DNA from: Candidatus Adlerbacteria bacterium GW2011_GWA1_54_10
Lineage (GTDB): Bacteria; Patescibacteriota; Minisyncoccia; Phycocordibacterales; SBAW01
Direction: 5' to 3'
Length of the DNA stretch: 64,000 nt
NCBI GenBank assembly: GCA_001004665.1
Contig: LCRO01000001.1
Span: forward strand, 483-64,482
The notes beneath the pieces were generated by a model, which ran no database searches, was not told where the DNA came from, and saw nothing but the letters and a program-made list of their open reading frames with translations. Position 1 is the stretch's first letter. Each line of letters begins with the position of its first letter. Below, piece by piece: positions 12,268 to 64,000 of the stretch. The position numbers and the translations under genes are program-made.

Positions 12268-14431
12268 TGTTTTCTGATGTCTTAAGCCCCTTGCGAAACG
12301 CGAATTCCGGATCCGCGGCTTTTATGGAGAAATTGATCCGGCCCTTCTCGTCTATCTCTTTTATCATAACCCGCACTTTGTCCCCAACAGAGACCGCTTC
12401 AGAGATCTTTCCGATGCGGAACGGCGCGACTTCGGAAACATGAACAAGCCCCTCGGCATCCTTTGACGGCCCTATCTTGACGAATGCGCCGAAATCCATA
12501 AGCCGGGTCACTTCGCCCTCGTAAACTTCGCCGGGCATATACTCCTTTACTATCTGTTCTATCATCTCGCGTGCTTTTTGCGCCGTGCCGCTTTTGCCCG
12601 TGATATAGACCGAGCCGTCATCCTCTATAGTGATGTCATCCACGCCTGCGGAGTCCCTTATTCCGTTTATAGTTTTGCCTCCGCCGCCGATGACAAGCCC
12701 GATCTGGTCGGGGCGCACGCGCATTGAGATTATCTCCGGAGCGCGCGGGCTTAACTTGGCGCGCGGGGCGGGTATCTCCTTTTCCATAAGGTCCAAAATC
12801 TGCATGCGCGCGGCGCGCGCGCCTTCAAGCGCTTCCGTCAATATCGGCACCGGCACGCCGCCGAGCTTGATGTCCATTTGAATGGCCGTTACCCCGCCGC
12901 GCGTGCCGGCGACCTTAAAGTCCATGTCGCCATGGCTGTCTTCCGGACCCTGAATGTCGGTAAGAATTTTATAAACATTCGCGCCTCTCATCATTAAACC
13001 CATCGCTATTCCCGCGACCGGCGCTTTTATGGGGACGCCGCCGTCCATAAGCGCGAGAGTCGAAGCGCAGGCCGAACCCATCGAGGTACTGCCGTTGCTG
13101 GCAAAGCATTCCGAAACGAGGCGGATTGTGTACGGGAACTGCTCCTGGCTCGGCAGGACAGGCTCAAGCGCCTTTTGTGCGAGCGCGCCGTGTCCTATGG
13201 CGCGGCGATTGATGCCGCCCATCCTCCCAGTCTCTCCACCCGAGTACGGAGGAAAGTTGTAATGATGCATAAAGCGCCGCTTCTCCTCCTGCGATTCCAT
13301 GGTATCGACGAGCAGGGAGTCGCCGGGTCCGCCCAAAGTAAGCGCGGTGAACACATGCGTGCCTCCGCGGTAGAAGATACCCGAGCCGTGGAGAACGGGA
13401 GAGATGCCGCCGGCTTTTGCAAAAAGCCGGCGTATCTCGCCCATGCCGCGCCCGTCGGCGCGCTTGCCCTCCTCTATCGCCCCGCGATGTATTTCTTCGT
13501 CTATTTTGTCCTCGAAGTATCTGTCCGCGATCTTAAGGTTCGACCTTGAAGAGCCCTGGTCTGAGGTCGAACCTTGGGTTTCAAGCGCCCCGGCCTTCTC
13601 CAGCCACTCCTTTTTAAGCGCGTAAATATTTTTCTTTCCCGCCTCGCCGCAGAAGACCGTCTCTCCAAGGCGAGGGGCGAACTCCGCCTTGAACAATTCG
13701 GTAAGTGCGGTGGACAATTCGGGCTCCGGCGCGGGGCGCTTTTGCTTCCCGACCTCTGCGATTATGTCCTCTTGCCATGCGAGCAACTTGGAGTGCTCGG
13801 CGACCGCGCTCTCGAACGCCGCCGCTATCGTTTTTTCGTCCGCCTCCTTCGCCGCGACCTCTACCATGTTTATTGTCGTGTCTTTTCCGCAGGCAAGTGT
13901 ATCGAGCGAGGCTCTGTCGCGCTGTTCGTAAGTCGGATTAATCACAAAGGCGTCGCCTTGAGAAATCAGTCCGATACGCACGGCCGCGACGGGCCCGTTC
14001 CACGGGATATCGGAGGTCGCAAGAGCAAGAGATGCCGCGTTTACCGCCACCTGCGCCGGGTCGTCCTCATCAAGCGAGAGCACGGTGATTATGACCTGTA
14101 CCTCGTTGCGGATGTGGCCTGGGAAAAGCGGGCGGATGGTGCGGTCGACGATGCGTCCGGAGAGTATGGCCTCTTCGCTGGGCCTCCCTTCGCGGCGCAT
14201 AAAGCGCGAACCGAGTATGGCGCCAGCCGCATAGAAGCGCTCCTCATAGTCTACGGTGAGCGGAAAGTAGTCGATGTCGTCGCGCGTCTTTTCGGACATG
14301 ACCGCGGTTGCGAGGACCGTGGTGTTTCCGTAGCGCAGTAGGCACGAGCCGCTTGCGTTCTCCGCCAGATCGGTAAACTCGGCGGTCATGGTTTTGCCGC
14401 CGATGTCTATGGAATAACTTTTGCTTTGCAT
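12230..14431 (-). CDS. pnp: Polyribonucleotide nucleotidyltransferase (PNPase). Carries an in-frame palindromic insertion encoding ...ETQGSTSDQGSSRSNLKIADRY...
   Basis: Two RNase PH domains, a KH domain and an S1 domain. N-terminus MQSKSYSIDIGGKTMTAEFTDLAENASGSCLLRYGNTTVLATAV. 733 aa. Classic rpsO-pnp neighbourhood. Confidence 0.92.
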   Translation of the reverse strand: MQSKSYSIDIGGKTMTAEFTDLAENASGSCLLRYGNTTVLATAVMSEKTRDDIDYFPLTVDYEERFYAAGAILGSRFMRREGRPSEEAILSGRIVDRTIRPLFPGHIRNEVQVIITVLSLDEDDPAQVAVNAASLALATSDIPWNGPVAAVRIGLISQGDAFVINPTYEQRDRASLDTLACGKDTTINMVEVAAKEADEKTIAAAFESAVAEHSKLLAWQEDIIAEVGKQKRPAPEPELSTALTELFKAEFAPRLGETVFCGEAGKKNIYALKKEWLEKAGALETQGSTSDQGSSRSNLKIADRYFEDKIDEEIHRGAIEEGKRADGRGMGEIRRLFAKAGGISPVLHGSGIFYRGGTHVFTALTLGGPGDSLLVDTMESQEEKRRFMHHYNFPPYSGGETGRMGGINRRAIGHGALAQKALEPVLPSQEQFPYTIRLVSECFASNGSTSMGSACASTLALMDGGVPIKAPVAGIAMGLMMRGANVYKILTDIQGPEDSHGDMDFKVAGTRGGVTAIQMDIKLGGVPVPILTEALEGARAARMQILDLMEKEIPAPRAKLSPRAPEIISMRVRPDQIGLVIGGGGKTINGIRDSAGVDDITIEDDGSVYITGKSGTAQKAREMIEQIVKEYMPGEVYEGEVTRLMDFGAFVKIGPSKDAEGLVHVSEVAPFRIGKISEAVSVGDKVRVMIKEIDEKGRINFSIKAADPEFAFRKGLKTSENNGGPNGRRQDRS
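13533..13577. repeat. Palindromic mini-element copy 2 (ttaaggttcgaccttgaagagccctggtctgaggtcgaaccttgg), in-frame inside pnp.
   Basis: Inverted repeat aaggttcgacctt / aggtcgaacctt. Encodes GSSRSNLK, identical to the comM peptide. Confidence 0.7.
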
Positions 14432-19207: not shown

Positions 19208-19279
19208 GCTCCCGTGGTGAAATGGATATCACGCGACGCTTCGGACGTCGAATTTCGGGTTCGAGTCCTGACGGGAGCG
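19208..19279 (+). tRNA. tRNA-Arg (anticodon UCG).
   Basis: Acceptor gctcccg/cgggagc, D-stem gtga/tcac, anticodon stem cgacg/cgtcg with loop cttcgga, T-arm tcggg-ttcgagt-cctga. Folded by hand. Confidence 0.55.
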
Positions 19280-19310
19280 CAGGAATGGGATATAATTATT
19301 TTTAGAAATT

Positions 19311-19381
19311 GCGGCCATGGTTAAGTGGTATAATGCGTCCTTGCCAAGGACGAGTTGGGAGTTCGATTCTCCCTGGCCGCA
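19311..19381 (+). tRNA. tRNA-Gly (anticodon GCC).
   Basis: Acceptor gcggcca/tggccgc, anticodon arm cgtcc-ttgccaa-ggacg, T-arm gggag-ttcgatt-ctccc. Confidence 0.7.
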
Positions 19382-19513
19382 CAAAAAGGCGATAAAAGAC
19401 ACCCAAATCGCTTGTTTCTGTGGAAAAGACTGTGAAGATGTGCATAAAGGACATTTTTATGTCCTTTATGGTTACTATAGTAACGATTTGTTTTCACGTG
19501 AACCGTATTATAT

Positions 19514-19909
19514 ATGTCCAAGACAGCTAAGCGTCAAACAGGCGATATTGGGGAAGGAGTAGCTTGCCACTGGCTAGAGAATAGGGGATATAAGGTAATC
19601 GAGCGCAATTATTTAAAGCCGTGGGGCGAGATAGATATAGTAGCGGAGAAAGCAAAAAAGCTCTATTTTGTGGAGGTAAAGTCAGTTTCACGTGAATCTT
19701 TTGCCAAATTGGGTTCACGTGAAATGTATCGGCCGGAGGAAAATGTTCATCCATCGAAGCTCAAAAGGCTCCATCGAGCGGTCCAGACCTATTTACTGGA
19801 TAGGAAAGTGCCAGAAAATAGGCCCTGGCAGATAGATGTTGTCTGTGTGTACTTAAACTTTGAGGACCGTAAGGCCCGCGTGGAGGTTTTGGAGAATGTG
19901 ATCCTGTAG
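19514..19909 (+). CDS. yraN: YraN/UPF0102-family endonuclease (restriction-endonuclease-like fold).
   Basis: GDIGEGVACHWLENRGYKVIERNY ... GEIDIVAEK ... YFVEVK pattern. 131 aa. Confidence 0.75.
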   Translation: MSKTAKRQTGDIGEGVACHWLENRGYKVIERNYLKPWGEIDIVAEKAKKLYFVEVKSVSRESFAKLGSREMYRPEENVHPSKLKRLHRAVQTYLLDRKVPENRPWQIDVVCVYLNFEDRKARVEVLENVIL

Positions 19910-19949
19910 CCTAAAGGACATCTAAAGGACATATGATAGAGTGTGCGAA

Positions 19950-20020
19950 CGGGCTGTAGTACACCGGTAGTATGCGTGCTTTGGGAGCACGAGAACTGGG
20001 TTCGATTCCCAGCAGCCCGA
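19950..20020 (+). tRNA. tRNA-Pro (anticodon UGG).
   Basis: Acceptor cgggctg/cagcccg, anticodon arm cgtgc-tttggga-gcacg, T-arm ctggg-ttcgatt-cccag. The D-arm pairing is imperfect in my hand fold. Confidence 0.55.
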
Positions 20021-20023
20021 ATT

Positions 20024-21163
20024 TTACCGCCCGTCGAGGGCGGAGATGAGTTGTGCAGTAAGGCCGGGGACGACCGTGGCGTTAAAAAGCGCAGCTTTTG
20101 CCGCAAGATCGCCGGAGAGAAGCCCTTTTATACCCCCGTGTCCCGCGCTTTTCAGGCTCTCATCAATGTGGGAGAGAGTTATGGCGCGCAGATCGCGCTC
20201 GCCAGTAGAACCTTCAAGTATTGCGGTCGAAATTATCCCGCCGAGCCTGCCGCTTTTAAGTGGTACTGCGGCTCCGCCCGAAGAACCGCTTTGGGAGAGT
20301 ATTGTGCCGCCTATGGAAAAAAGGTCAATGTCGTCCGCCGTGCCCTCGAAGGAATAAAGGCGGGTTAGATAGGCGAGCGCCGAGCTTGCATAAAGGTTGG
20401 TTGCTATCGTCTCGCCGGAAAGAAATCCGGCCGGATAGGCGGCAAGAAGTATTTGTTCGCCAAGCGTCCGCTCGCCTATGTCAGGCTCAAGAGCAGGGAA
20501 GTGGGAAGGCAGGGGATTTTTGGGGTTATACGGGCCGGTAATAAGCAAAAATGCATAATCCCTCTCGCCCGTGCCGAGGGCCCGCTGCTCTGCAATTTGG
20601 GGGGCGTTCTCCGCCACCCATGTAGGCGGGAGATAAAGCAGGGCGGCGCGGTATTGCGGCTCGGCTGGGCTCCCAGCGCGCACGATGCAGTCAATATTAC
20701 CGGGCATGCCGTAGTCGCGCAAAAGGAAATATTGCGCGACGTGTGCGGCTGTCAAAATTACGCCGCGGCTGTCCACGATAACGCCGCTGCCGGAAATGGG
20801 GTTGAGATAGCCGCCGCGCAGTGTGGTGCAGACAATATTTATCAGCGCCGCGCGCGTTTCGGTATTTAACTGTGAGAACGACTTCGCGGGCGCGTCGGCA
20901 GGCTCCAGCGGTTCCGGGATTTTCGCCGCGGGAGTGACAGAAGGCAACTCCTCGCCCGCTTGCGGAGAGGTGTTGCCTTGAGGGGCTGTAAGTTGCGGCT
21001 CCGGCTCTTGCATGGTTACTCGCGTTGTCGTCGCTATATCCTGCGTCGGCGCTGGAGCTTGGGTCACCACCTGCGGTGCCGCGCCAAAAAGCGTAGCAAT
21101 TGCAACAATCACTACGGCAAAAAACCTTGCCACGGCGTCAATTAATCCGTAGATAAATTCCAT
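20024..21163 (-). CDS. Secreted trypsin-like (S1 family) serine protease.
   Basis: N-terminal TM/signal VVIVAIATLFGAAPQ. His motif GVILTAAHVAQ. Ser motif GSSGGAAV. 379 aa. Confidence 0.7.
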   Translation of the reverse strand: MEFIYGLIDAVARFFAVVIVAIATLFGAAPQVVTQAPAPTQDIATTTRVTMQEPEPQLTAPQGNTSPQAGEELPSVTPAAKIPEPLEPADAPAKSFSQLNTETRAALINIVCTTLRGGYLNPISGSGVIVDSRGVILTAAHVAQYFLLRDYGMPGNIDCIVRAGSPAEPQYRAALLYLPPTWVAENAPQIAEQRALGTGERDYAFLLITGPYNPKNPLPSHFPALEPDIGERTLGEQILLAAYPAGFLSGETIATNLYASSALAYLTRLYSFEGTADDIDLFSIGGTILSQSGSSGGAAVPLKSGRLGGIISTAILEGSTGERDLRAITLSHIDESLKSAGHGGIKGLLSGDLAAKAALFNATVVPGLTAQLISALDGR

Positions 21164-21250
21164 GATTAGAAGTATTATACTAAATTGAGTTTTTCCGCCC
21201 TAGCGGACTAGCGGGCTTGCCCGCCGAAGTCACGCTATGGCGGGACGAAG

Positions 21251-21321
21251 GCGGGATTAGTTTAGTGGCAAAACGACAGTTTTCCAAACTGTAGTCGGGA
21301 GTTCGATTCTCCCATCCCGCA
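21251..21321 (+). tRNA. tRNA-Gly (anticodon UCC).
   Basis: Acceptor gcgggat/atcccgc, anticodon arm acagt-tttccaa-actgt, T-arm gggag-ttcgatt-ctccc. Confidence 0.65.
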
Positions 21322-21408
21322 CACTTCGACTCGAGGACTCGCTCAGTGTAAACACTGAGCCATAGTAAAGTGGAGAAGTACCCCGAGTTCTATCGAGGGG
21401 CTCCTAAT

Positions 21409-55222: not shown

Positions 55223-55774
55223 ATGGAACTGATACAGCAAAAGCAAAAAAAGGCATTCGAAGCGCTCAAGAAGGGGTTTGAGTGGAAAAATGCCATGCAA
55301 ACGCCACGCATAGAAAGGGTAGTGGTTTCCGCGGGCATCGGCAAGTTTATGAAGGATAAGAAAAAAACGGAACTCATCGCCGACCGTCTGGCAAAGATAA
55401 CTGGACAAAAGGCGGTGCCTCGGGGCGCCAAAAAGTCCATAGCGAGCTATAAGACCCGCACCGGCGACACGGTAGGCTATCAGATAACTCTGCGCGGCAA
55501 AAGGATGCAGGACTTTCTTAACAGGCTTATCCATATAGCCTTGCCGCGCACCAAGGATTTCAAGGGCTTGCGATCCGCCGGCATAGACGAGATGGGCAAT
55601 TACACGCTCGGCATGCGCGAGCATGCCGTCTTCCCCGAGACCTCCGACGAGGAGCTGAAGGACGTCTTCGGCATCGGCGTAACGGTCGTAACTTCCGCCA
55701 AGGACAAAAAAATCGCCAAGGCCTACCTCCAACACCTCGGCTTCCCGTTCAAGAAGGACGTTTCGCAAAAATAA
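55223..55774 (+). CDS. rplE: 50S ribosomal protein L5 (last ribosomal gene in the window; rpsN/rpsH/rplF are not found downstream).
   Basis: 183 aa L5 signature. Confidence 0.92.
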   Translation: MELIQQKQKKAFEALKKGFEWKNAMQTPRIERVVVSAGIGKFMKDKKKTELIADRLAKITGQKAVPRGAKKSIASYKTRTGDTVGYQITLRGKRMQDFLNRLIHIALPRTKDFKGLRSAGIDEMGNYTLGMREHAVFPETSDEELKDVFGIGVTVVTSAKDKKIAKAYLQHLGFPFKKDVSQK

Positions 55775-55948
55775 CGTTATATATTGGCCTACAAGGATAT
55801 TTCCTTGGTCGGTCTCAAAACTTCATAATTGTTCCTGAGACGTTAAGTCTTGCCTATCGAGACGTAACCACTGGGGTACCATCGGAGGAAACTAATTCCA
55901 TATTTTGGGCTCACTCTCTGTTGATAGGCAGATGCCTTTCCTTAATTC

Positions 55949-57901
55949 GTGGTGGTACAATTTAGGTGTAGATTTCATACAACTATGCCTCCCCAACAAC
56001 CCAACCCTGTCCCTACTACTCCGGCTAGTCCACCTCAGTCTTTCACACCGTCCACTCCTCCCAAACATCATCATTCGTATTGGTTATTAATTGCCGCTGG
56101 TGTAGCAATTGCTATTTTGACGTATCTTGGAATAAGCCAAGTTACTTCCGCCCCGGTGTCTATCTTTGCTCTGTTTACTAATCCAGAAATGGGTGGATAT
56201 GCACTATTCCTGCTTCCTGCTGTAGTGGTTAGTCTTATATTGATTTTAATTAGCTGGCGATGGGGACGGAATATATACAGAAAGGAAAATAGACCGGTGC
56301 AGGGATTTTTCTTCGGCACGTCGCTGTATCTACTCCTCGTCTTTTTAGCGCTTGGAATTACAAATGTACTACTTGTTGGTTACGCACATACAGTGGCGGA
56401 TGATGTTTCCTTTGCAGTAGGATTGATATTCTCTATCTTTTTTATTACTTCCATACAGATTTTATACGTCGGTCTGCTTATCTGCATGGGGCTTCTTATT
56501 TACTCAACCCGCTCATCTCCAGAAGAACCATCTCAGGCACCTTCTCCATTAGCCATACAGTTTCGTTATGCGGTTATGGGGGTCATGATTATTTTTGCGC
56601 TCTATATATTTGGGCTTGCCGCACCGATTGCCACTGCTACCCACCAGCAATGGCTTTGTAATTTGGTATACAGCAGTCGAGCAAAAGCAGACTGTCTTCT
56701 TAACACTTCTGCTATCGCGGCCTCTGAGAATGCCGCTCAAAATTCGGGTAACTCAGGGACTTTTACTATTGTTAAGACTGACTACAAACAAATTAAAGAC
56801 CTCCACGAGGTAGGAGGAAAGTTGGCCTACGCATTTGAAAATAATGATGGCACTTCGGGGGTGGCATATGATGGCCAGGTGGTGAGTGGTGCTTATCAAA
56901 AAGTGGGTATTCTGCCGATTGCAGAGGTTGGAGGAAAACTCGCGTATGAGGCATACAAAGGCGATAAAGAAATTATCGTTTGGGACGGACAGGAGTTTGG
57001 GACATCTTATAACCGGGCAAGCCAACCAACTGATATAGGCGGCAAGCTCGCTTTTGTAGCGGAAATAGGAAAAAAATATTTTGTGGTGTACGACGGAAAA
57101 GAATATGGTAGAGAGGCCGACGGGGCGGGGAGACCCACGTCAATACAGGGGAAGCTTGCCTACGCTGCCGATACGAATATTAATGGCGGGCAATATGTAG
57201 TATTTGACGGAAAACAAGTGGGTGGCCGCTATGGCAGAGTCGAGTGGATAAAAGATGAGGATGGTCACTTGGTGTTTGAAGGGGTAAATGGAAATGGAAC
57301 CTTGCTCGTGGTCGACGGAAAAGAGTATGGCTTTGGATATGGGCAAATACAAAACCATGTTTTGATTGATGGGAAACTCGCCTTTTCTGCCCAAAAGGAT
57401 GGCAAGACAGTCATTGTCTATGAGGGCACAGAAATCGGCACAGGCTCCTCATATGAGGCTGGACCCTATAACATCAAAGGCCAACTTGCGTATATTGCTG
57501 CAAATCCCGACGGAACCTCCCAGCTTATGGTAGGAGGACAAGCGGTTGGGCCGGTTATGTCAGGAAGTGTCCGCAATGTGGATGTTTCAAAGGGCGGGAG
57601 AGTGGTTGTACAGATTGATGACGGTAGCAAGCAATGCAGAGGCGTAGTGCACGGTCCAATATATCTTGATGGGGAAAAAGTATATGAAGGCTGTAGCAGC
57701 AACCCATTCGGCTTTTTTGGAGAGAAATTATTGTTCTGGACACAAGAGGGCGGAGATAAGGCGTTGTGGTACGACGGTAAAAAAATTGGCCAAGGATTTT
57801 ACGGATATAACTACTTCGCAGTGGTGGATGGGAAGTTGGCTATCGCCGCCTTTGCTTCGGCAGGGCAAGGCGTTCAGTACTCCTTGCTTCTTGAACAGTA
57901 G
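55949..57901 (+). CDS. Polytopic membrane protein with a Pro-rich N-terminus, about 6 TM helices and a C-terminal array of about 40-aa tandem repeats (GGKLAY...DGKEYG..Y), resembling WG/KWG-type beta-propeller repeats.
   Basis: 650-aa ORF; a start at MPPQQPNPV (55985) is also possible. TM helices e.g. YWLLIAAGVAIAILTYLGI, GYALFLLPAVVVSLILILISW, LYLLLVFLALGITNVLLVGY. At least 8 repeats of the type IGGKLAFVAEIGKKYFVVYDGKEYGREADGAGRPTSIQGKLAYAAD. Confidence 0.6.
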   Translation: MVVQFRCRFHTTMPPQQPNPVPTTPASPPQSFTPSTPPKHHHSYWLLIAAGVAIAILTYLGISQVTSAPVSIFALFTNPEMGGYALFLLPAVVVSLILILISWRWGRNIYRKENRPVQGFFFGTSLYLLLVFLALGITNVLLVGYAHTVADDVSFAVGLIFSIFFITSIQILYVGLLICMGLLIYSTRSSPEEPSQAPSPLAIQFRYAVMGVMIIFALYIFGLAAPIATATHQQWLCNLVYSSRAKADCLLNTSAIAASENAAQNSGNSGTFTIVKTDYKQIKDLHEVGGKLAYAFENNDGTSGVAYDGQVVSGAYQKVGILPIAEVGGKLAYEAYKGDKEIIVWDGQEFGTSYNRASQPTDIGGKLAFVAEIGKKYFVVYDGKEYGREADGAGRPTSIQGKLAYAADTNINGGQYVVFDGKQVGGRYGRVEWIKDEDGHLVFEGVNGNGTLLVVDGKEYGFGYGQIQNHVLIDGKLAFSAQKDGKTVIVYEGTEIGTGSSYEAGPYNIKGQLAYIAANPDGTSQLMVGGQAVGPVMSGSVRNVDVSKGGRVVVQIDDGSKQCRGVVHGPIYLDGEKVYEGCSSNPFGFFGEKLLFWTQEGGDKALWYDGKKIGQGFYGYNYFAVVDGKLAIAAFASAGQGVQYSLLLEQ

Positions 57902-58219
57902 ATTATCCCCTAGGACGATTCCCTAGGCGTCTACAATCGTCTCAGAACGTTGGGAAGGGGTCAGTGTATGGTTTCCATTATCCCTGCATAGTTTTACTTC
58001 TAGGAGAGGAGGTATTACCATATCGGTACAACTGAATAAAAAGGGCCTAACCCCAATAGCTTAACTGTTGGGCAAGGCCGAAAATCATGAGGCATAGAAA
58101 ACCCGTCATTCAGGGCATGCCTCATGTTATAGGGGGAAACTCCTATAAGGCCGCAAGGCCTCCTGGTGGCGGGCTTTGTGTTTTCTCACCCACCAGAATT
58201 ACTGGAGTAAGAAACAAAA

Positions 58220-58822
58220 ATGGATGCGGTAAAAAAGTGGGTATTAGTTCCGGTTGCATATCTGGTCGGATTCTTAGTTTTATTAATCCTATTGGCCGTG
58301 CTTGGGGTATGGTTGGGTTTTCTTTGGGGACTACTTATAGTAAGTGCGGCTACCCTTGCTTGCGGAGTTTTTTTAATACCGAAGTTGCACCCAAATAAAG
58401 AGAGGAAGAACCTGATGGGCGGAGTGCTGACGCTGCTAGTGTCTATATGGGCAATAGTTGGTGTTGCAAACCTGGGAGCATGGATTATGACTCCTTCGGC
58501 TTCTACATCTGTAGTCCAATCACAGGAAGTTACTCCAGAAGCGAAAGCTGCCGCACAGGAGCAATTAAATAGAGTAATGTCTCTTGCTAAAAAAGCTAGA
58601 CTCATTACCACATATGAGTTTTCAGATAGTGCAGCAGTAGTTTATGCCGACACGGCTTGGTACATACAAACAGTGCAGTTCAAGAAAGATTTTCTTGCAA
58701 AAATAGGTACTCTCAAAAAACAAATCACAGGCTATCAGCATTTCGAGGTACGCGACGCCTACTCCAACGAGAAAGTTGCGGAGATTACATCTTTCGGTGG
58801 TTCGCTTGAAGTTTACAAATAG
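58220..58822 (+). CDS. Membrane protein (3-4 N-terminal TM helices plus a C-terminal soluble domain), hypothetical.
   Basis: 200-aa ORF. WVLVPVAYLVGFLVLLILLAVLGVWLGFLWGLLIVSAATLACGVFLI then GGVLTLLVSIWAIVGVANLGAWIM. No family recognised. Confidence 0.5.
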   Translation: MDAVKKWVLVPVAYLVGFLVLLILLAVLGVWLGFLWGLLIVSAATLACGVFLIPKLHPNKERKNLMGGVLTLLVSIWAIVGVANLGAWIMTPSASTSVVQSQEVTPEAKAAAQEQLNRVMSLAKKARLITTYEFSDSAAVVYADTAWYIQTVQFKKDFLAKIGTLKKQITGYQHFEVRDAYSNEKVAEITSFGGSLEVYK

Positions 58823-59243
58823 TATTCTTTACCCTGACTTACAGAATGTCTCTCTAGACGTCTAGAGACGTCTCAGAACGTTGGAAAGTAAGGGGTTTAT
58901 AGGTTTTATTGGCTGTGGATTACTCCATCGCTAGGACATAGGAACAGGACGGTCGTAAATACCCTCTAAAAAGACTTTGATTGAAGCCATTTTTATATGG
59001 TCATTTTTGACGTATTTCCATGTATATCTGTCCCTAGTTGGAAGTACATGAATGAAAACACCAGATAACTTTTTACAAACAGGTTTGACGAAAGCTAGAG
59101 TGTCAAAGTGTCCTCGCAGAAAGCAGAAATTAAAAATGAATCCCTGGTCGAGCTTGAATCTGAAAGAGCGTGGGAGCAACTTTTCTGCCTTTTACTTGGC
59201 ACGGATAAAACCGAAAAAACAAAGCCATTAAAAAGTAGTCTGA

Positions 59244-59441
59244 ATGACGATGTCAAACTTACACAAAATTGATCCTTGCCCCGGTTGCTGGAACCGACCC
59301 CATGATGACCTAGCTCTAAATTCAGTCTCCAGGTACGGACACGGTTATATATGCGGCGACTGCGGTCAAAAAGAGGCTATTGAGGGTGACTTCATTAGCA
59401 AACAAAATGAGTTCGTCAGAAACTTACTAGCTGGTAGATAA
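59244..59441 (+). CDS. Small zinc-ribbon protein (CxxC...YGHG...CGxC), paralog 1.
   Basis: 65 aa. CPGCWNRPHDDLALNSVSRYGHGYICGDCGQKE. The motif layout is shared with the adjacent ORF. Confidence 0.5.
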   Translation: MTMSNLHKIDPCPGCWNRPHDDLALNSVSRYGHGYICGDCGQKEAIEGDFISKQNEFVRNLLAGR

Positions 59442-59447
59442 AATCCT

Positions 59448-59705
59448 ATGCCAAAAATTACACCTACCGCTGTCCTAGAATTCCTTAAAGAAAATCCTGA
59501 CTTCTGGCGACAAAATCGCAACCGCTGTGCCGGATGTGATAGGTTGCTTGCAAAAGACAGAGTGAAGTGGATGTTGCGTAGTAGATATGGTCACGGTGAA
59601 CTCTGTGGCGCTTGCCGTTACAGAGATGCCCATTATGACTTCATCGGCATACGACGCAGTAAACCCGCTGGCGATAACGTCAATCCTTATGATGAAAAAG
59701 GATAG
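59448..59705 (+). CDS. Small zinc-ribbon protein (CxxC...YGHG...CGxC), paralog 2.
   Basis: 85 aa. CAGCDRLLAKDRVKWMLRSRYGHGELCGACRYRD. Tandem with paralog 1, separated by 6 nt. Confidence 0.5.
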   Translation: MPKITPTAVLEFLKENPDFWRQNRNRCAGCDRLLAKDRVKWMLRSRYGHGELCGACRYRDAHYDFIGIRRSKPAGDNVNPYDEKG

Positions 59706-60114
59706 GGCGTCGGGACGCAGATTCCCTGGCTTTCCCCATGAATGGGACGAAGAGTACGGGTTTACTCAATACCCCAATATGCTTACCGAATTTTGGGCCG
59801 ACTTGTCAGGGTCGGGCCAAAAAGTTCTGGACTTTATCATTCGGCAAACAATAGGCTGGGAAAAAGATGAGGACACAATAGCGCTGTCACAGTTCAGGAA
59901 TGGAATCCGGGGTAAGTGGAACAACCGGGGGACAGGGTTGTCGGGCTCCCAGGTCCGCAGAGCAATCAAGGAGCTTGAAAACGGTGGCTACATCACTGTT
60001 GAACGGAATCAGAATCGACCCTCCACATTTCGTCTGGTGTTTGACGATGAGTTAAAGGAGGGGGAGATAGAGGAGACAAAAGGGGAGGGGGAAGAAGAGC
60101 AACGACTCTTTTGA
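59689..60114 (+). CDS. Winged-helix DNA-binding protein, possibly a phage replisome-organiser / DnaD-N-like or regulator, with an acidic C-terminal tail.
   Basis: Internal Met of ORF 59587..60114, overlapping the end of paralog 2 by 17 nt. FTQYPNMLTEFWADLSGSGQKVLDFIIRQTIGWEKDEDTIALSQFRNGIRGKW...SGSQVRRAIKELENGGYITVER resembles the replisome-organiser N-terminal winged helix. Assignment is tentative. Confidence 0.4.
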   Translation: MMKKDRASGRRFPGFPHEWDEEYGFTQYPNMLTEFWADLSGSGQKVLDFIIRQTIGWEKDEDTIALSQFRNGIRGKWNNRGTGLSGSQVRRAIKELENGGYITVERNQNRPSTFRLVFDDELKEGEIEETKGEGEEEQRLF

Positions 60115-60441
60115 GTCAACTGTGTTCATTAAGGCCACAAACGTATTCATCTTGGCACTAGGGCTAAACAATATGAACGGCCATTTGTAGTCAAAATGGT
60201 ACCCACAATATATAAACAATAAATAATAATCAGAATATAATATACAGTTTTCCATTTTTCCAAAAATGGATAGCTAGTCCTTCTGAAAGGATTTCTGGAA
60301 GAGGAAAAAAGGGGAAATGAACGACTTTTTTCCGACTCCAGAAATCAGAAAAAGAAACTATTCCGGCCTATCCAAAATGACCATAGCCTTACCAACTATT
60401 TACAACTAACCTAAAGTATGGTAAAATATTAACAGCTAGTC

Positions 60442-60615
60442 ATGAACGACCCTGAAGCTTTACGAGATTACCTTATAGCAGACGAAATTCAGCGCATTCA
60501 AGCGCTGTCCCGAGAAGACCTTGTAAGAGAGCTGATTTCTCTGAGGTCGGAAAAGCTAGAAGGTGTCTCACTCGCAGACCTGCTGAAAGTTTGTCAGTCA
60601 AAAAATGGAACATGA
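60442..60615 (+). CDS. Small acidic helical protein (57 aa) immediately upstream of, and overlapping, the serine recombinase start; candidate recombination directionality factor or regulator.
   Basis: ATG-initiated ORF MNDPEALRDYLIADEIQRIQALSREDLVRELISLRSEKLEGVSLADLLKVCQSKNGT. Below the ORF-track size cut-off. No homology assignable. Confidence 0.25.
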   Translation: MNDPEALRDYLIADEIQRIQALSREDLVRELISLRSEKLEGVSLADLLKVCQSKNGT

Positions 60616-62335
60616 TTCTCCACAGCCAGTAAAAAAGAAGGAACGAGGCGCCGAGTATCTGCGTGTTAGTACAGAAGAACAAAATTCCGAGGGGCACTAC
60701 GGTCTCCAAGTCCAAGAAGAGCGCGTAAAGTCCTGGTGCGAATCGCAAGGATATGTGGTCGCCGAGGGGAATATCTACAAGGACGAAATATCCGGCGGAC
60801 TGCCAGTTGAAAAACGTCCCGGCCTCAGTGCATTGTTCGAGGCAGCTAAACGTGGGGAGTTTGATGTCGTGGTGGTGTACAAAACTGACCGCTTGGCTCG
60901 CAACCTCCGCATACTGGTAAACATCATCCATGAACTAGACAGCTTAGGTGTTGCCTTCCGCTCTGTTACGGAACCGTTTGACACCACTACTTCGTTCGGT
61001 AAAGCCAGCTTCAACTTAGTAGGCACTTTTGCTGAGTTGGAAAAGGAAATGATTCGGGAGAGGACGACCAACGGCCGGATAAAGGCAGCCAAGTCGGGAA
61101 AGTGGGTGGGCTCCACTGCCCCTTTCGGGTATGTGGTCAATAAGACCAGCCGTAGGCTGGATATAAATCTGCAAGAAGCCAAGATTGTGAAGCAGATATT
61201 TAAGTGGGCGGTAGACGACAAGCTCGCCGTCCATGAAATAGAGCGCCGATTGAACGCAATGAAGGTGCCGGCGCCGTGGTCGACCAAAATCAAAACCAAG
61301 GAGACACATAACATCTGGCGACCCTTTACCGTGCGGCGCGTGTTGGCCAACGAAACGCACACGGGTACCTTCTACTACCGCAAGTATAAAAAGCCGTTCA
61401 ACGGATTGACCAGCGTCACCGACCCAACCCGCCTCCGGCCTAAAGAGGACTGGATAGAGCAACATTGCGAGCCTATTATCACCGTGGAGATGTACGAGGC
61501 CGCCAAGCGCCAACTTACACACAACCGTGAGTTTGCTAAACGCAACTGCAAGCGTGAATATCTATTCTCCAAAATCATCTGGTGTAGCCAATGCAAGCAC
61601 AAGATGTTCGGGGGATTCCAGCCTGCTAGAGAACTGGGGGCTCATGAGGGTGGCCGCTACTACCACGGCACCTACCGCAAGGACGATGCCCTAGGCAAGA
61701 CAGCACGGTGCCAGTGGTGTCCTAACTACTCCGAGGCACGCCTGGAGCCCATTTGGGATTTTCTCAGAGATATATTGAAGAATCCGAAGAACATGACCCG
61801 ACCTTTGGAGAAATACATCTATAAGGAATCTGACCCTCTGCCGGTCAAGCAACGCCTTCACGATATTGCCCAGGAGCTGGATACCATACGTAAAAGACGC
61901 GATAGGGTGGACGACCTCTACGTCAGCGAACAAATAGACAAGCAAAAGTACAAATCCTATCAAGCGGAGTTTAAGCTCGACGAGCAGAGACTAAAGGATG
62001 AGGATGTCCGCCTCCGCCAAACCTTGTTGAGCAAAAAAGAGATTACCGACCGCCAGAAGGCGGTAGCCAAGGCATACGAGCAAATCAAAGATCGCTTGGA
62101 CAAAGTGTCCTACGAAGAAAAGGCGAAAATCGTCTCCTACTTTGTAGAGCGGGTAGTCCTCCACGCCAAAGACGACCATGTGGAGGTAGCCTTCAAATTC
62201 CCACTGGATGCCGAGACCAAGGAGGGCAAGTCCTTTCCGCTGGTGCATAAAATCCCTACCATCACGGAGAAGGAACGTCGGGCCACCCTTATGCAGTCGA
62301 ACCCTGAAATGTTTACGCCGAAGGTGCTGGTGTAG
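60605..62335 (+). CDS. Large serine recombinase (resolvase/invertase catalytic domain, recombinase domain, zinc-ribbon and coiled-coil); phage-integrase type.
   Basis: Catalytic N-terminus GAEYLRVSTEEQNSEGHYGLQVQ with nucleophile Ser. RPGLSALFEAAKRGEFDVVVVYKTDRLARNLR. Recombinase-domain motif TGTFYYRKY. Cys cluster CSQCKHKMFG...CQWCPNY. 576 aa. Confidence 0.85.
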   Translation: MEHDSPQPVKKKERGAEYLRVSTEEQNSEGHYGLQVQEERVKSWCESQGYVVAEGNIYKDEISGGLPVEKRPGLSALFEAAKRGEFDVVVVYKTDRLARNLRILVNIIHELDSLGVAFRSVTEPFDTTTSFGKASFNLVGTFAELEKEMIRERTTNGRIKAAKSGKWVGSTAPFGYVVNKTSRRLDINLQEAKIVKQIFKWAVDDKLAVHEIERRLNAMKVPAPWSTKIKTKETHNIWRPFTVRRVLANETHTGTFYYRKYKKPFNGLTSVTDPTRLRPKEDWIEQHCEPIITVEMYEAAKRQLTHNREFAKRNCKREYLFSKIIWCSQCKHKMFGGFQPARELGAHEGGRYYHGTYRKDDALGKTARCQWCPNYSEARLEPIWDFLRDILKNPKNMTRPLEKYIYKESDPLPVKQRLHDIAQELDTIRKRRDRVDDLYVSEQIDKQKYKSYQAEFKLDEQRLKDEDVRLRQTLLSKKEITDRQKAVAKAYEQIKDRLDKVSYEEKAKIVSYFVERVVLHAKDDHVEVAFKFPLDAETKEGKSFPLVHKIPTITEKERRATLMQSNPEMFTPKVLV

Positions 62336-62412
62336 CTACATAAAATGGCCTGTCAGGCCTTATCGCTTTTCCCCAGGGGAAGCACTACAATGTGGGTGCC
62401 TAAAGGCTCCTA

Positions 62413-64000
62413 ATGATTAAATACCTCTACATAAAGAACTTCCGCTCTATCAAGGAGCTAGAACTATTCCCCGAAAATCTATGCAGTCTGCTTGGGCCAA
62501 ATAGTGTTGGAAAGACCAATGTATTAAAGGCTCTGGACTTACTGCTTGGGGAATCGTGGGCAACGAAAGGAAAGATTTCGAGGGAACTTTTCAATGACCC
62601 CAACGAGCCAATAGAAATAGAGGCGACCTTTTCAACTCCCATAAAGTATTCGGACAATTACGGACGAGAGATTGTTGCTGAAGGAGTACAGCTCCGTATG
62701 ACTCTTAGGCCAGAGTTAACTTGCAAGGTTTCGACAACACCCGACGGAAAGTTTTTAAGTGAGGATTTTAAAAAGAAGTGCCACTTTATTTACATCCCTT
62801 CTCAAAGAGAACTATCCGACCAGATGAGGGTGACGGGGTGGACATTACTTGGCAAGCTAATGAAAGAGGTGCATGCAAATTATATTGCAGCATATGGTGG
62901 CGATGAGGAAAAATTAAAAGCAGAGTTGAAAGAAATAATTAAACCGGCCAAAGAGTTTATTGAGAAAGATTTCGATCCATCTGCCACCACCTTTAGTAAG
63001 TTTGTTGAAACATTCAAACGCAATTGTGTGCAGAACAGCGTTGGATTGGCAAACAAGTTTGAGCCCGAATTAAATATCTACAACCTCAACTGGTTTTATA
63101 AGACTCTGCAAATTCAAGTAACAGAGAAGAACGGTCAAGTATTTGATGCGGAGGACTTGGGAAGTGGTCTCCAAAATCTCATTCTCATATCAATATTCCA
63201 AACCTACGCCGAACTTATGGGAGGACGGGTAATATTTGGAATAGAAGAGCCGGAAATATATCTTTACCCTCAAGCTCAGCGAGCACTTTACGAAAGTTTT
63301 CAAGAGCTTTCCAAAAATGGCCAAATCTTTTATACCACTCATAATCCTAACTTTGTGAGTGCATTCAGGGCTCATGAAATTGAGATATTGCAAAAAGACG
63401 ATGAAAAAGGTACTTACGTTTTGGATAAAAACTCGGTTATTACGAAGGATTTCTTACAAGATACTCAATATAAGATTTATTCTCACTTCAATACCCATCG
63501 AAACGAAATATTTTTTGCAAAGAAAACACTTCTAGTTGAGGGGCCGTCCGACAAGATTCTTTGGGAAACACTATGCAAAGAAAAGTGGGGGATTGACCTC
63601 AATAGGTCTGGCATATCTATAATCGATTGTAGTGGTAAGGGTGGGGTTATTTACTTTACTGGAGTATGTAAACTACTAGGTTTGAATTACTTTTCCGTAT
63701 GGGATGGCGATGACGAGGCCCCGCATGAGCTACTTGCTGAGGCCCAGACATCCGGACGGGGTTTGGAAATTGAGGGCAACCTCGAAAAGTTCCTTAAATC
63801 CAATTATGCTGACCTTATTTTCAGTAAGGATGAGGCAAAGAAAATCCAGCAAGCTCATGAGTGGGCAGAAAAGACCACAGAATGGCCGGCGGCATTTGAG
63901 CCAGTCAAAATATTCCTTTCCGACCCAGTACCTGTGGTATCTGAAACACCAGTGGTGCCTGCTCAGCCTGTAGAACCAGACCCTCTGGACGATATATTTG
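62413..64000 (+). CDS. OLD-family ATP-dependent nuclease (N-terminal ABC-type ATPase plus C-terminal TOPRIM domain), GajA/PARIS-like anti-phage defence protein; 3'-truncated by the window edge.
   Basis: Translation is open from the ATG at 62413 to position 64000; it is missing from the ORF track because there is no stop. Walker A LLGPNSVGKTNVLKALDLLLG, ABC signature-like LGSGLQNLILISIF, Walker B/D-loop VIFGIEEPEIYLYP, TOPRIM KTLLVEGPSDKILWE...SVWDGDDEA. Confidence 0.8.
   Translation, partial: MIKYLYIKNFRSIKELELFPENLCSLLGPNSVGKTNVLKALDLLLGESWATKGKISRELFNDPNEPIEIEATFSTPIKYSDNYGREIVAEGVQLRMTLRPELTCKVSTTPDGKFLSEDFKKKCHFIYIPSQRELSDQMRVTGWTLLGKLMKEVHANYIAAYGGDEEKLKAELKEIIKPAKEFIEKDFDPSATTFSKFVETFKRNCVQNSVGLANKFEPELNIYNLNWFYKTLQIQVTEKNGQVFDAEDLGSGLQNLILISIFQTYAELMGGRVIFGIEEPEIYLYPQAQRALYESFQELSKNGQIFYTTHNPNFVSAFRAHEIEILQKDDEKGTYVLDKNSVITKDFLQDTQYKIYSHFNTHRNEIFFAKKTLLVEGPSDKILWETLCKEKWGIDLNRSGISIIDCSGKGGVIYFTGVCKLLGLNYFSVWDGDDEAPHELLAEAQTSGRGLEIEGNLEKFLKSNYADLIFSKDEAKKIQQAHEWAEKTTEWPAAFEPVKIFLSDPVPVVSETPVVPAQPVEPDPLDDIF

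Follow-up and report, generated by a model that had tools for sequence, protein, structure and literature searches.

A probable large serine recombinase element of a Patescibacteria-specific family in the last codons of rplE of an Adlerbacteria bacterium

Analysis of a 64,000-nucleotide stretch of contig LCRO01000001.1 from the groundwater bacterium Candidatus Adlerbacteria bacterium GW2011_GWA1_54_10 (the whole stretch is referred to as the window) showed that its ribosomal protein gene cluster is interrupted at the end of rplE, the gene for ribosomal protein L5. We conclude that the interrupting DNA is very probably an integrative element of 8,420 bp, mobilised by a large serine recombinase (LSR), which belongs to a family specific to the Candidate Phyla Radiation (CPR) and has inserted into the last codons of rplE. 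The original prediction, made from the letters of the window, of a mobile element or defence island inside the ribosomal protein super-operon was thus borne out by gene content, by the junctions and by the comparative pattern. An LSR-driven integrative defence island is a known kind of element, and what is new is the target, the host group and the passenger LOOT RNA; our literature search returned no description of such an element family in Patescibacteria/CPR, nor of rplE as an attachment site.

On the plus strand of the window the genes tuf-rpsJ-rplC-rplD-rplW-rplB-rpsS-rplV-rpsC-rplP-rpmC-rpsQ-rplN-rplX-rplE follow one another, and the operon had been predicted to be truncated after rplE. 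An exact look-up with the recombinase yielded 24 contigs, from which nine loci were fetched; because the recombinase served as the query, this set could contain no empty sites. Positions beyond 64000 are given here as window-equivalent coordinates, that is, the coordinate in locus L001, to which the window is 100% identical, plus 50604. By sequence comparison, the population of the window is that of NCBI assembly GCA_001004725.1 (L002, LCRP01000001.1). In all nine assemblies the gene for an OLD-family protein ends at window-equivalent 64044 and is followed by a 288-bp spacer and then by rpsN, which starts at window-equivalent 64332 and encodes 61 amino acids (L002 13728-13913). In longer contigs of the same population rpsH, rplF, rplR, rpsE, rplO, secY, adk and map come next, and since rpsN-secY resume after the OLD gene, the super-operon is interrupted by about 8.4 kb and not truncated. 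The contig extension that had been proposed as a check thereby located the right boundary, the right attachment site (attR) and rpsN to secY. The GC content is 55.3% over positions 1-55752 versus 45.6% over 55753-64000, the element as a whole having 45.6% and either flank 55-56%; the low value predicted for the insert (about 45%) was therefore accurate, while the 60% assumed for the host was too high. At third codon positions GC is about 0.70 in the host genes tuf, rplB and rplE; within the insert it is 0.58-0.64 for the RepO-like protein and the recombinase and 0.39-0.46 for most other genes. All genes of the insert lie on the plus strand, co-oriented with the ribosomal operon, and every gene that the prediction had listed was present there (two membrane proteins, zinc-ribbon proteins, a winged-helix protein, a small open reading frame (ORF), the recombinase and OLD). 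It had also noted no strong terminator after rplE, and a consensus scan of the plus strand between 55775 and 58249 likewise returned no terminator-like site.

The junctions were defined by comparing attL-type, attR-type and naive rplE ends. For this, GTDB species representatives were scanned with L5, which gave 80 Adlerbacteria/Paceibacteria loci at 59-76% identity to the query. The element extends from 55753 to window-equivalent 64172 (Table 1). Its attachment site, attP, would read TTTTTCCGGAACAACTGCC-AA-GAAGGACGTTTCGCAAAAA, an imperfect 19-2-19 dyad with arms that are symmetric at 12 of 19 positions, including 10 of the 12 outer ones, and with a centre that falls within the core common to attL and attR. 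This core is CAAGAA, and a variant found in L019 narrows it to CAAG. The bacterial site, attB, is predicted to be the conserved 3' end of rplE, ...GGCTTCCCGTTC-AA-GAA..., with the crossover placed at the AA dinucleotide (55751-55752), so that, judged by these junctions, the insertion point falls within the coding sequence of rplE, among its last codons, and not in the intergenic spacer. The pre-insertion site reconstructed in this way consists of ...FPFKKQ* (asterisks denote stop codons), a terminator hairpin and then 157 bp of spacer up to rpsN. This hairpin, the native terminator of rplE, lies at attR today and folds with -21.5 kcal/mol (z = -5). Predicted junction sequences are CACCTCGGCTTCCCGTTCAAGAAACAATAAAACCCGCTCGCC for the empty attB and GGTTTTTCCGGAACAACTGCCAAGAAGGACGTTTCGCAAAAATAACG for the circular attP. 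Long direct repeats as att sites were considered and discarded, since large serine recombinases leave just a short common core and such repeats are not to be expected of them. Within the window the P arm has no match at up to 3 mismatches, as expected with attR lying 170 bp beyond the window end. Spc genes directly after the OLD gene with no att repeats had been named as a finding that would speak against insertion: the spc genes are indeed there, but att sites are identifiable.

The rplE ends of related species carry the attL side of this reconstruction. In the clade the usual tail of L5 is FPFKK*, encoded by ...TTYAAGAA in uninterrupted genes, whereas in six species (the window, L011, L012, L034, L091 and L093) rplE ends with FPFKK-DVSQK*. 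The 19-nucleotide tail of these six, GGACGTTTCGCAAAAATAA/G, is identical except for one base of the stop codon (mean identity 98%), while the preceding 300 nucleotides of rplE are 70-87% identical (mean 75%). The six species are scattered on the rplE/L5 tree beside sisters with FPFKK*, and in all of them the rplE-rpsN gap measures 1.6-11 kb.

On the attR side, a conserved block directly to the right of the OLD gene (L001 13478-13572) comprises an imperfect palindrome followed by the P arm GTTTTTSCGGAACAACTGCCAAGAA, and other species have it in their rplE-rpsN gaps too, frequently with several copies in one gap. The copies of the P arm in these gaps are on the plus strand, with a single reverse-strand match in L068. 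An in-frame stop in the rplE frame follows within 2 codons of the P arm in 15 of 16 copies (GTAA, ATAA, ATAG and others, read from the end of the arm), often together with a terminator hairpin; from their frame and position we read these stops as the fossil of the rplE end. L019 has a P arm joined straight to a DVSQK-type P' arm, which constitutes an attP-like junction, and its own rplE has the variant tail K-SAGSQK*, diverging right after ...AAG. The L019 junction supports repeated integration into a regenerated rplE end, followed by decay. As a further observation, tandem att-like modules, each made of palindrome, P arm, core, rplE-stop fossil and terminator, separate small cassettes of one or two genes in the rplE-rpsN gaps of relatives (Table 1), and such modules may alternatively have been formed by cassette mobilisation in trans. 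The imperfect palindrome directly 5' of the attR P arm is about 78 nucleotides long (L001 13478-13556, window-equivalent 64082-64160) and folds as RNA with -31.3 kcal/mol (z = -3.8). Several elements conserve its sequence, but single copies differ in fold, some being strongly and others weakly structured; tested as a structured RNA, it matched no Rfam family and yielded neither a consensus nor covariation in RNAalifold. Possible roles are those of an accessory site, an origin or a terminator.

The recombinase of the window (576 amino acids) has the resolvase and recombinase domains of a serine integrase. Its resolvase domain, PF00239, covers model positions 3-145 of 145 and includes the sequence AEYLRVSTEEQ, and PF07508 matched with E = 4.7e-16; among PHROG families it matched integrase with E = 2e-103. 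In an 18-member family alignment Y18, R20, S22 and Q26 (YxRVSTxxQ) are invariant and C327, C369 and C372 nearly so, and residues 400-520 are rich in heptads. The nearest solved structures are integrase 9iu2 and SPbeta YokA, the latter aligned over residues 58-466. A Pfam scan found no tyrosine recombinase in the element. The LSR belongs to a family of about 80 protein clusters of about 580 amino acids that are 36-100% identical, beyond which identity drops sharply to at most 31%, and all named members are from CPR bacteria (Parcubacteria, Nomurabacteria, Curtissbacteria and Paceibacterota). Elements with recombinases 67-69% identical to ours (L091 and L093, the latter being the same as L014) also occupy the rplE-rpsN interval, where they have the tail and P arm seen here but other cargo; L094, with a recombinase 82% identical, has the same backbone on a contig that stops short of the host flank. 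Recombinases of 51-61% identity (L090, L092, L096, L097 and L098) belong to elements that split a comM/Mg-chelatase gene, and the comM-side P arm of L090 and L092, ...GGACAACTATCCT, has the motif GGACAACT in common with the rplE-type arm. The comM-type elements insert after the codons for ...GVLFL (L090 4584-4628 and 13112-13260; L096, L097, L098 and L092), and their left part often contains restriction-modification genes.

At least ten family members have the same small backbone and a size of 8-12 kb. The gene order is constant: a replication gene (RepO-like or Prim-Pol/PriCT), an ORF of about 57 amino acids, the LSR, a variable slot and the att site. In related elements the position of the RepO-like gene is held by RepO or by Prim-Pol/PriCT, and the presence of this protein suggests plasmid-like replication after excision. 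The NCBI version of the metagenome-assembled genome (MAG; L002, LCRP01000001.1) lacks 60 bp in frame in the RepO-like winged helix as compared with the window and the eight other assemblies (window 59923-59980), so either the assemblies differ at this point or the population is polymorphic, its replication gene being in decay. The 57-amino-acid ORF (MNDIEALRDYIIADEIQRIQSLSREEL...) lies directly upstream of the recombinase gene and overlaps or abuts its start in every family member examined. It had no family match in Pfam or PHROG, and by its position it is a candidate recombination directionality factor or regulator. The LOOT RNA is present in five of the ten LSR-bearing family elements scanned, of both the rplE and the comM type, with 69-90 bits. 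That LOOT always precedes a homologous gene was considered and rejected, as the one likeness found was a weak one in the transmembrane (TM) region, shared by the window and L098.

The slot between the recombinase and attR differs in content from one element to the next (Table 1), and this pattern indicates that it is a swap site for defence cargo; the slots of L094 and L092 are, in their own right, examples of defence systems in CPR bacteria. In the window it holds the OLD gene, which in full encodes 543 amino acids with a Walker A motif (GPNSVGKT), the TOPRIM motifs VEGPSD and DGDD and an acidic, proline-rich C-terminal tail of about 60 amino acids. The best PADLOC model was 'Old' (168 bits, E = 6e-50), ahead of GajA and AriA, and the protein matched the OLD-family endonuclease of PDB entry 6P74 with E = 7e-45 over residues 1-447. 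This structure is that of the class 1 OLD of Thermus scotoductus. No helicase or reverse-transcriptase neighbour was found, the neighbours being the recombinase upstream and attR and rpsN downstream. From these motifs and this setting, the protein is presumably a stand-alone class 1 OLD nuclease with an anti-phage role.

Table 1. Features of the element, its attachment sites and counterparts in related loci. Positions refer to the window unless another locus is named; we, window-equivalent.
Feature	Locus	Position	Strand	Remarks
rplE (ribosomal protein L5)	window	55223-55774	+	Pfam Ribosomal_L5 and L5_C; last part, 55753-55774 (KDVSQK*), attributed to the element
Putative attL	window	55732-55771	+	B arm 55732-50, central AA 55751-52, P' arm GAAGGACGTTTCGCAAAAA 55753-71
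638-amino-acid polytopic membrane protein	window	55985-57901	+	Alternative GTG start at 55949 (650 amino acids)
LOOT RNA (Rfam RF03000)	window	58044-58161	+	79.3 bits (gathering score 46.4); E = 2.7e-13; model 1-121 of 121
200-amino-acid membrane protein	window	58220-58822	+	ORF; element backbone or cargo
65-amino-acid zinc-ribbon mini-protein	window	59244-59441	+	CxxC...CxxC; PHROG 6105, E = 1.2e-6
85-amino-acid zinc-ribbon mini-protein	window	59448-59705	+	ORF; SRYGHGxxCGxC motif in common with the 65-amino-acid ORF
RepO-like winged-helix protein	window	59587-60114	+	Pfam Phage_rep_O, E = 1.3e-8; PHROG 'replication initiation O-like', E = 1.5e-12
57-amino-acid ORF	window	60442-60615	+	Overlaps recombinase start
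Large serine recombinase, 576 amino acids	window	60605-62335	+	Resolvase, E = 1.7e-38; Recombinase, E = 4.7e-16
OLD ATPase-TOPRIM protein	window	62413-64000, running past the window end	+	AAA_15, E = 5e-36; OLD-like_TOPRIM, E = 2.9e-17
Palindrome and attR P arm	we	64082-64170		Just past the window end
attR central AA	we	64171-64172		
Fossil rplE end (K)KQ* and terminator hairpin	we	64173-64230		
Slot cargo	window			OLD
Slot cargo	L091			NYN/HEC-09-like protein
Slot cargo	L093			MerR with DUF4325
Slot cargo	L094	3964-7383		Bub-like ubiquitin-like/E1/BubE set and HigB toxin, adjoining an M78-peptidase-domain gene
Slot cargo	L092	12424-13959		CBASS (cyclic oligonucleotide-based anti-phage signalling system): CD-NTase with Cap15
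Slot cargo	L098			SMC-like ATPase
Slot cargo	L090, L096, L097			Helix-turn-helix protein with M78 peptidase
LOOT RNA	L093	3591-3716		
LOOT RNA	L092	5519-5638		
LOOT RNA	L096	5344-5465		
LOOT RNA	L098	5310-5426		
Tandem att-like modules	L034	8734, 9137, 9571		Three
Tandem att-like modules	L012	7392, 8142, 9112		Three
Tandem att-like modules	L094	7495, 8533, 9661		Three
Tandem att-like modules	L022	10526, 11228, 12054		Three
rpsN leader copy	L027	9149-9299		
rpsN leader copy	L030	10911-11061		
rpsN leader copies	L058, L060, L051, L072, L026, L063, L029			

The comparison of relatives places the insertion in a region that is variable throughout the clade. Among the 69 loci showing both genes, the rplE-rpsN distance ranges from 25 bp to about 6 kb, with a median of 582 bp and more than 1 kb in 22, and in the two relatives with an intact element, L091 and L093, it amounts to about 10.5 and 11 kb. 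The gap contents vary by species and include surface-type proteins (DKNYY, Laminin_G/Fib_succ, PKD, Peptidase_S74), ParE toxin, Cas1 and MerR with DUF4325. An intact LSR was found in L014 alone among the 80 species representatives, most relatives keeping scars without a recombinase. A hairpin with a T-run lies within 110 nucleotides after the rplE stop in 42 of the 69 loci, as opposed to 1 of 69 in the coding control, and a promoter-like leader immediately upstream of rpsN is highly conserved in many relatives; because of the hairpins, the leader and the varied contents we regard the rplE-rpsN boundary as a natural transcription boundary and variable region. A 1.2-kb block encoding a MerR-family protein of 241 amino acids and a DUF4325-like protein of 106 amino acids is 91% identical between L010 (4593-5825) and L014 (15934-17165), whereas the flanking ribosomal genes of the two are about 71% identical. 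It lies in the rplE-rpsN gap of both, that of L010 being without a recombinase, and the difference in identity points to horizontal transfer at this site. The integration site had not been recognised as a common one; on the evidence of these gaps, it is a recurrent insertion hotspot in the clade. In L013 (10563-11957), another Adlerbacteria species, cas1 (Pfam E = 7e-67) lies directly after rplE and is followed by a 103-amino-acid ORF, with repeat-like ORFs downstream, so a CRISPR-Cas adaptation module seems to occupy the same hotspot there.

We propose the following course of events. The LSR would recombine attP with the conserved 3' end of rplE at the central AA, whereby the P' arm would provide a substitute L5 C-terminus, KDVSQK*. 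L5 is full-length with a tail 6 residues longer, and would remain intact because the P' arm supplies this replacement. The original last codons and stop, the terminator hairpin and the promoter-like leader of rpsN would be displaced to attR. The left-hand cargo, that is, the membrane protein and the LOOT RNA, would be read through from the ribosomal promoter, which is plausible since the element genes are co-oriented and the new rplE stop has no predicted terminator behind it. At the other end, the displaced native terminator would insulate rpsN-secY, which keep their own promoter-like leader. The expression of rpsN-secY is expected to be largely unaffected because both the displaced terminator and the promoter-like sequence with its hairpin before rpsN (L001 about 13650-13715) are retained; the predicted consequences for the downstream spc genes are thus unlikely to be harmful, the more so because the rplE-rpsN junction was already an operon boundary. 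After excision, the RepO-like protein would replicate the circle, with the 57-amino-acid ORF acting as directionality factor. The element may still be mobile at present.

Several observations weigh against an active element with simple serine integrase chemistry. Exact-match scans of assembled JGI metagenome contigs did not find the empty attB GGCTTCCCGTTCAAGAAACAATAAAACCCGCTCG, and equivalent scans of JGI contigs and IMG/VR did not find the circular attP junction. The element is on every contig recovered for the species, these contigs having been retrieved via the recombinase, and the 60-bp in-frame deletion in the winged helix of RepO in the NCBI version of the MAG hints at decay. In the recombinase, Zn_ribbon_recom scored 18.3 bits, below the curated cut-off of 25.3. 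Furthermore, the B' side of attB varies between species, which is unusual for serine integrases, and the tandem attP-like modules of relatives are not expected from simple attP x attB chemistry. The first three of these findings, together with the prevalence of scars among relatives and the intact LSR in one of 80 representatives, also fit an island that was integrated by the LSR and is now fixed, immobile or domesticated, kept for a useful OLD and surface protein with neither excision nor replication. We consider this a possible but distinctly less probable account, since the attL and attR arms, the catalytic motif, the 57-amino-acid ORF and the RepO gene in its window version are all intact, and since retrieval through the recombinase could not have yielded empty sites and the scans covered exact matches in assembled contigs alone.

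If the element were what is left of a prophage or phage satellite, with RepO, serine integrase and OLD surviving from a temperate CPR phage, this would explain why the RepO-like protein and the integrase match phage families; P2 carries old, and the L093 element encodes a 1,107-amino-acid protein with a Peptidase_S74 domain, a tail-spike chaperone domain. Such an origin appears improbable. Among the nine ORFs tested there was no capsid, terminase, portal or tail PHROG match, the PHROG matches being to integrase, RepO-like protein and function-unassigned families alone; the ten or more family members are all of 8-12 kb with the same small backbone; and IMG/VR contained no relative when the recombinase alone was the query and just distant LSRs, at most 34% identical, when the family profile was used. 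Since no phage structural match and no close IMG/VR relative was found, our preferred view is of a small integrative island, possibly replicative, and not of a prophage.

It is very unlikely that the operon was split ancestrally, leaving a vertically inherited variable spacer in which the recombinase is an unrelated passenger and the motifs are host regulatory signals. The natural boundary between rplE and rpsN with its long spacers in most relatives and the conserved host leader upstream of rpsN agree with such a split, but they do not account for a nucleotide-identical tail in polyphyletic taxa, fossil stops after P arms, an attP dyad centred on the common core, a 10-point drop in GC, horizontal transfer of a cargo block (91% versus 71%) or a sister clade that targets comM with a related P arm. 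The same genes in the same place at native GC in relatives had been named as the mark of an ancestral split, and this was not the case, as relatives carry other cargo or none. Finally, an assembly or binning chimera joining a foreign contig to the ribosomal cluster, which the abrupt GC change in MAG-derived sequence might have suggested, can be dismissed with near certainty, because both junctions are reproduced at 99.9-100% identity to the window in nine independent assemblies from ENA, JGI and NCBI samples and the ribosomal protein genes continue beyond the insert.

Beyond the LSR-mobilised element itself, we put forward, as a tentative extension, that LSRs of the CPR-specific family may use the rplE 3' end of Adlerbacteria and related Paceibacteria as a dedicated landing pad, to which they would bring, time and again, elements and mini-cassettes flanked by att sites. 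Defence, toxin-antitoxin and surface protein genes might in this way be gathered into arrays resembling integrons; transcription from the ribosomal protein promoter would run on into these arrays, with the displaced native terminator insulating them. LOOT would be a component of the family serving, for example, replication, copy or excision control.

Among known systems the closest analogue is the staphylococcal cassette chromosome (SCC) at rlmH, by analogy and not by membership. SCC elements of staphylococci (SCCmec, ACME) are integrated by the large serine recombinases CcrAB/CcrC in the 3' end of rlmH/orfX. Like them, the present element is an LSR-driven non-phage island with variable cargo, occupies the final codons of a conserved gene with a role in translation, whose coding end is kept, and has relatives in which tandem or composite islands accumulate between repeated att-like sites. 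Unlike SCC, its recombinase is a single gene instead of a ccrAB pair and comes from a CPR-only family (at most 31% identity outside), the target is rplE in the ribosomal protein cluster and not rlmH, the host is a CPR bacterium, and the element has a RepO-like gene, the conserved 57-amino-acid ORF and the LOOT RNA. The recombinase resembles the integrases of phiC31, Bxb1, A118/comK, SPbeta/spsM and phage WO in its resolvase and recombinase domains, which a zinc-ribbon/coiled-coil may follow, and, as with serine integrases, the putative att site is about 40 bp long, an imperfect dyad about a non-palindromic central dinucleotide, and integration is within genes; a target site of the comM/Mg-chelatase type, like that of the sister clade, has reportedly been described in a genomics paper on Wolbachia phage WO. 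In contrast to the phage systems, the element is without phage structural genes, hosts differ in the B' half of attB, several attP-like modules stand in tandem in relatives, and the directionality factor is a candidate one, the 57-amino-acid ORF. The OLD protein has the N-terminal ABC-type ATPase and C-terminal TOPRIM domain of class 1 OLDs (phage P2 Old; Thermus scotoductus OLD, PDB 6P74) and is likewise a stand-alone gene on a mobile element, but unlike those named it lies on a CPR integrative element and has the acidic tail. Defence islands are known generally, and P2/P4-like prophages and satellites have defence hotspots. The slot described here is comparable to these in having a fixed place beside the integrase gene and the att site and in holding different defence systems in similar elements; it differs in being part of LSR-based elements of 8-12 kb in Patescibacteria, in rplE or comM. 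A likeness to integrons exists in relatives (L012, L022, L034 and L094) with arrays of one- or two-gene cassettes ending in a conserved imperfect palindrome and a recombination-site-like motif, but there is no tyrosine IntI and no attI/attC, and the sites look like double-stranded LSR att sites.

Our analysis thus defines, in Patescibacteria/CPR, a family of small integrative elements with their att sites. It indicates that a mobile element can reside in the middle of the S10-spc-alpha cluster without breaking it, by rebuilding the L5 C-terminus and using a pre-existing terminator/promoter boundary. CPR phylogeny and MAG curation make use of 16 syntenic marker proteins that the S10-spc-alpha cluster supplies, and a variable, GC-shifted island between rplE and rpsN is relevant to binning and contig breaks. 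The putative 40-bp attP/attB pair with a compact LSR might serve in the genetic manipulation of CPR bacteria, for which engineering is difficult, and the orphan LOOT RNA gains a genetic context.

As to the remaining genes of the element, the 638-amino-acid protein has about five N-terminal hydrophobic helices and a C-terminal repeat domain, probably a beta-propeller, and had no match in Pfam, PADLOC or PHROG. Its homologues were found only in CPR and a few archaeal MAGs, the distant ones with WD40/PD40 Pfam domains; because those at 43-45% identity lie in ordinary chromosomal contexts in other CPR, we take the protein to be captured surface-protein cargo and not backbone. The 200-amino-acid membrane protein, also without a match in Pfam, PADLOC or PHROGs, is in its C-terminal part 78% identical to an 81-amino-acid ORF of the L091 element, and its N-terminal TM region is like L098_307. 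The paralogy claimed for the two zinc-ribbon ORFs is detectable, but weak (56% over 23 amino acids, E = 0.001).

The non-coding leader of rpsN, about 130 nucleotides upstream of the gene, is 85-93% identical between species with coding genes about 70% identical. It is laid out as TTGACT-N17-TATAT, a AGCCCnnnnGGGCTCCTTTTTT hairpin and a helix-rich segment (CTGTTAGGTGCCGC...GCGAGGCAnACCnnCAG...), and its variant copies look compensatory. It had no Rfam match and may be an undescribed ribosomal protein leader; the host of the window keeps the promoter-like part and first hairpin alone (L001 13650-13727). A palindrome, perfect or nearly so, is centred on the rplE stop in L010, L015, L025, L026, L063, L024 and L060; the one of L010 reads GTTTAAAAAGAGCTAGCTCTTTTTAAAC. 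Sequence like CAATAAGAAAGCAGAAGT comes after it, and the tails are FPFKKS*, N* or SN*. The palindrome may be a host hairpin or a scar left by another type of element. Four clustered tRNA genes (Arg-TCG, Gly-GCC, Pro-TGG and Gly-TCC) lie at 19208-21322 of the window, far upstream, none of them adjoining the element.

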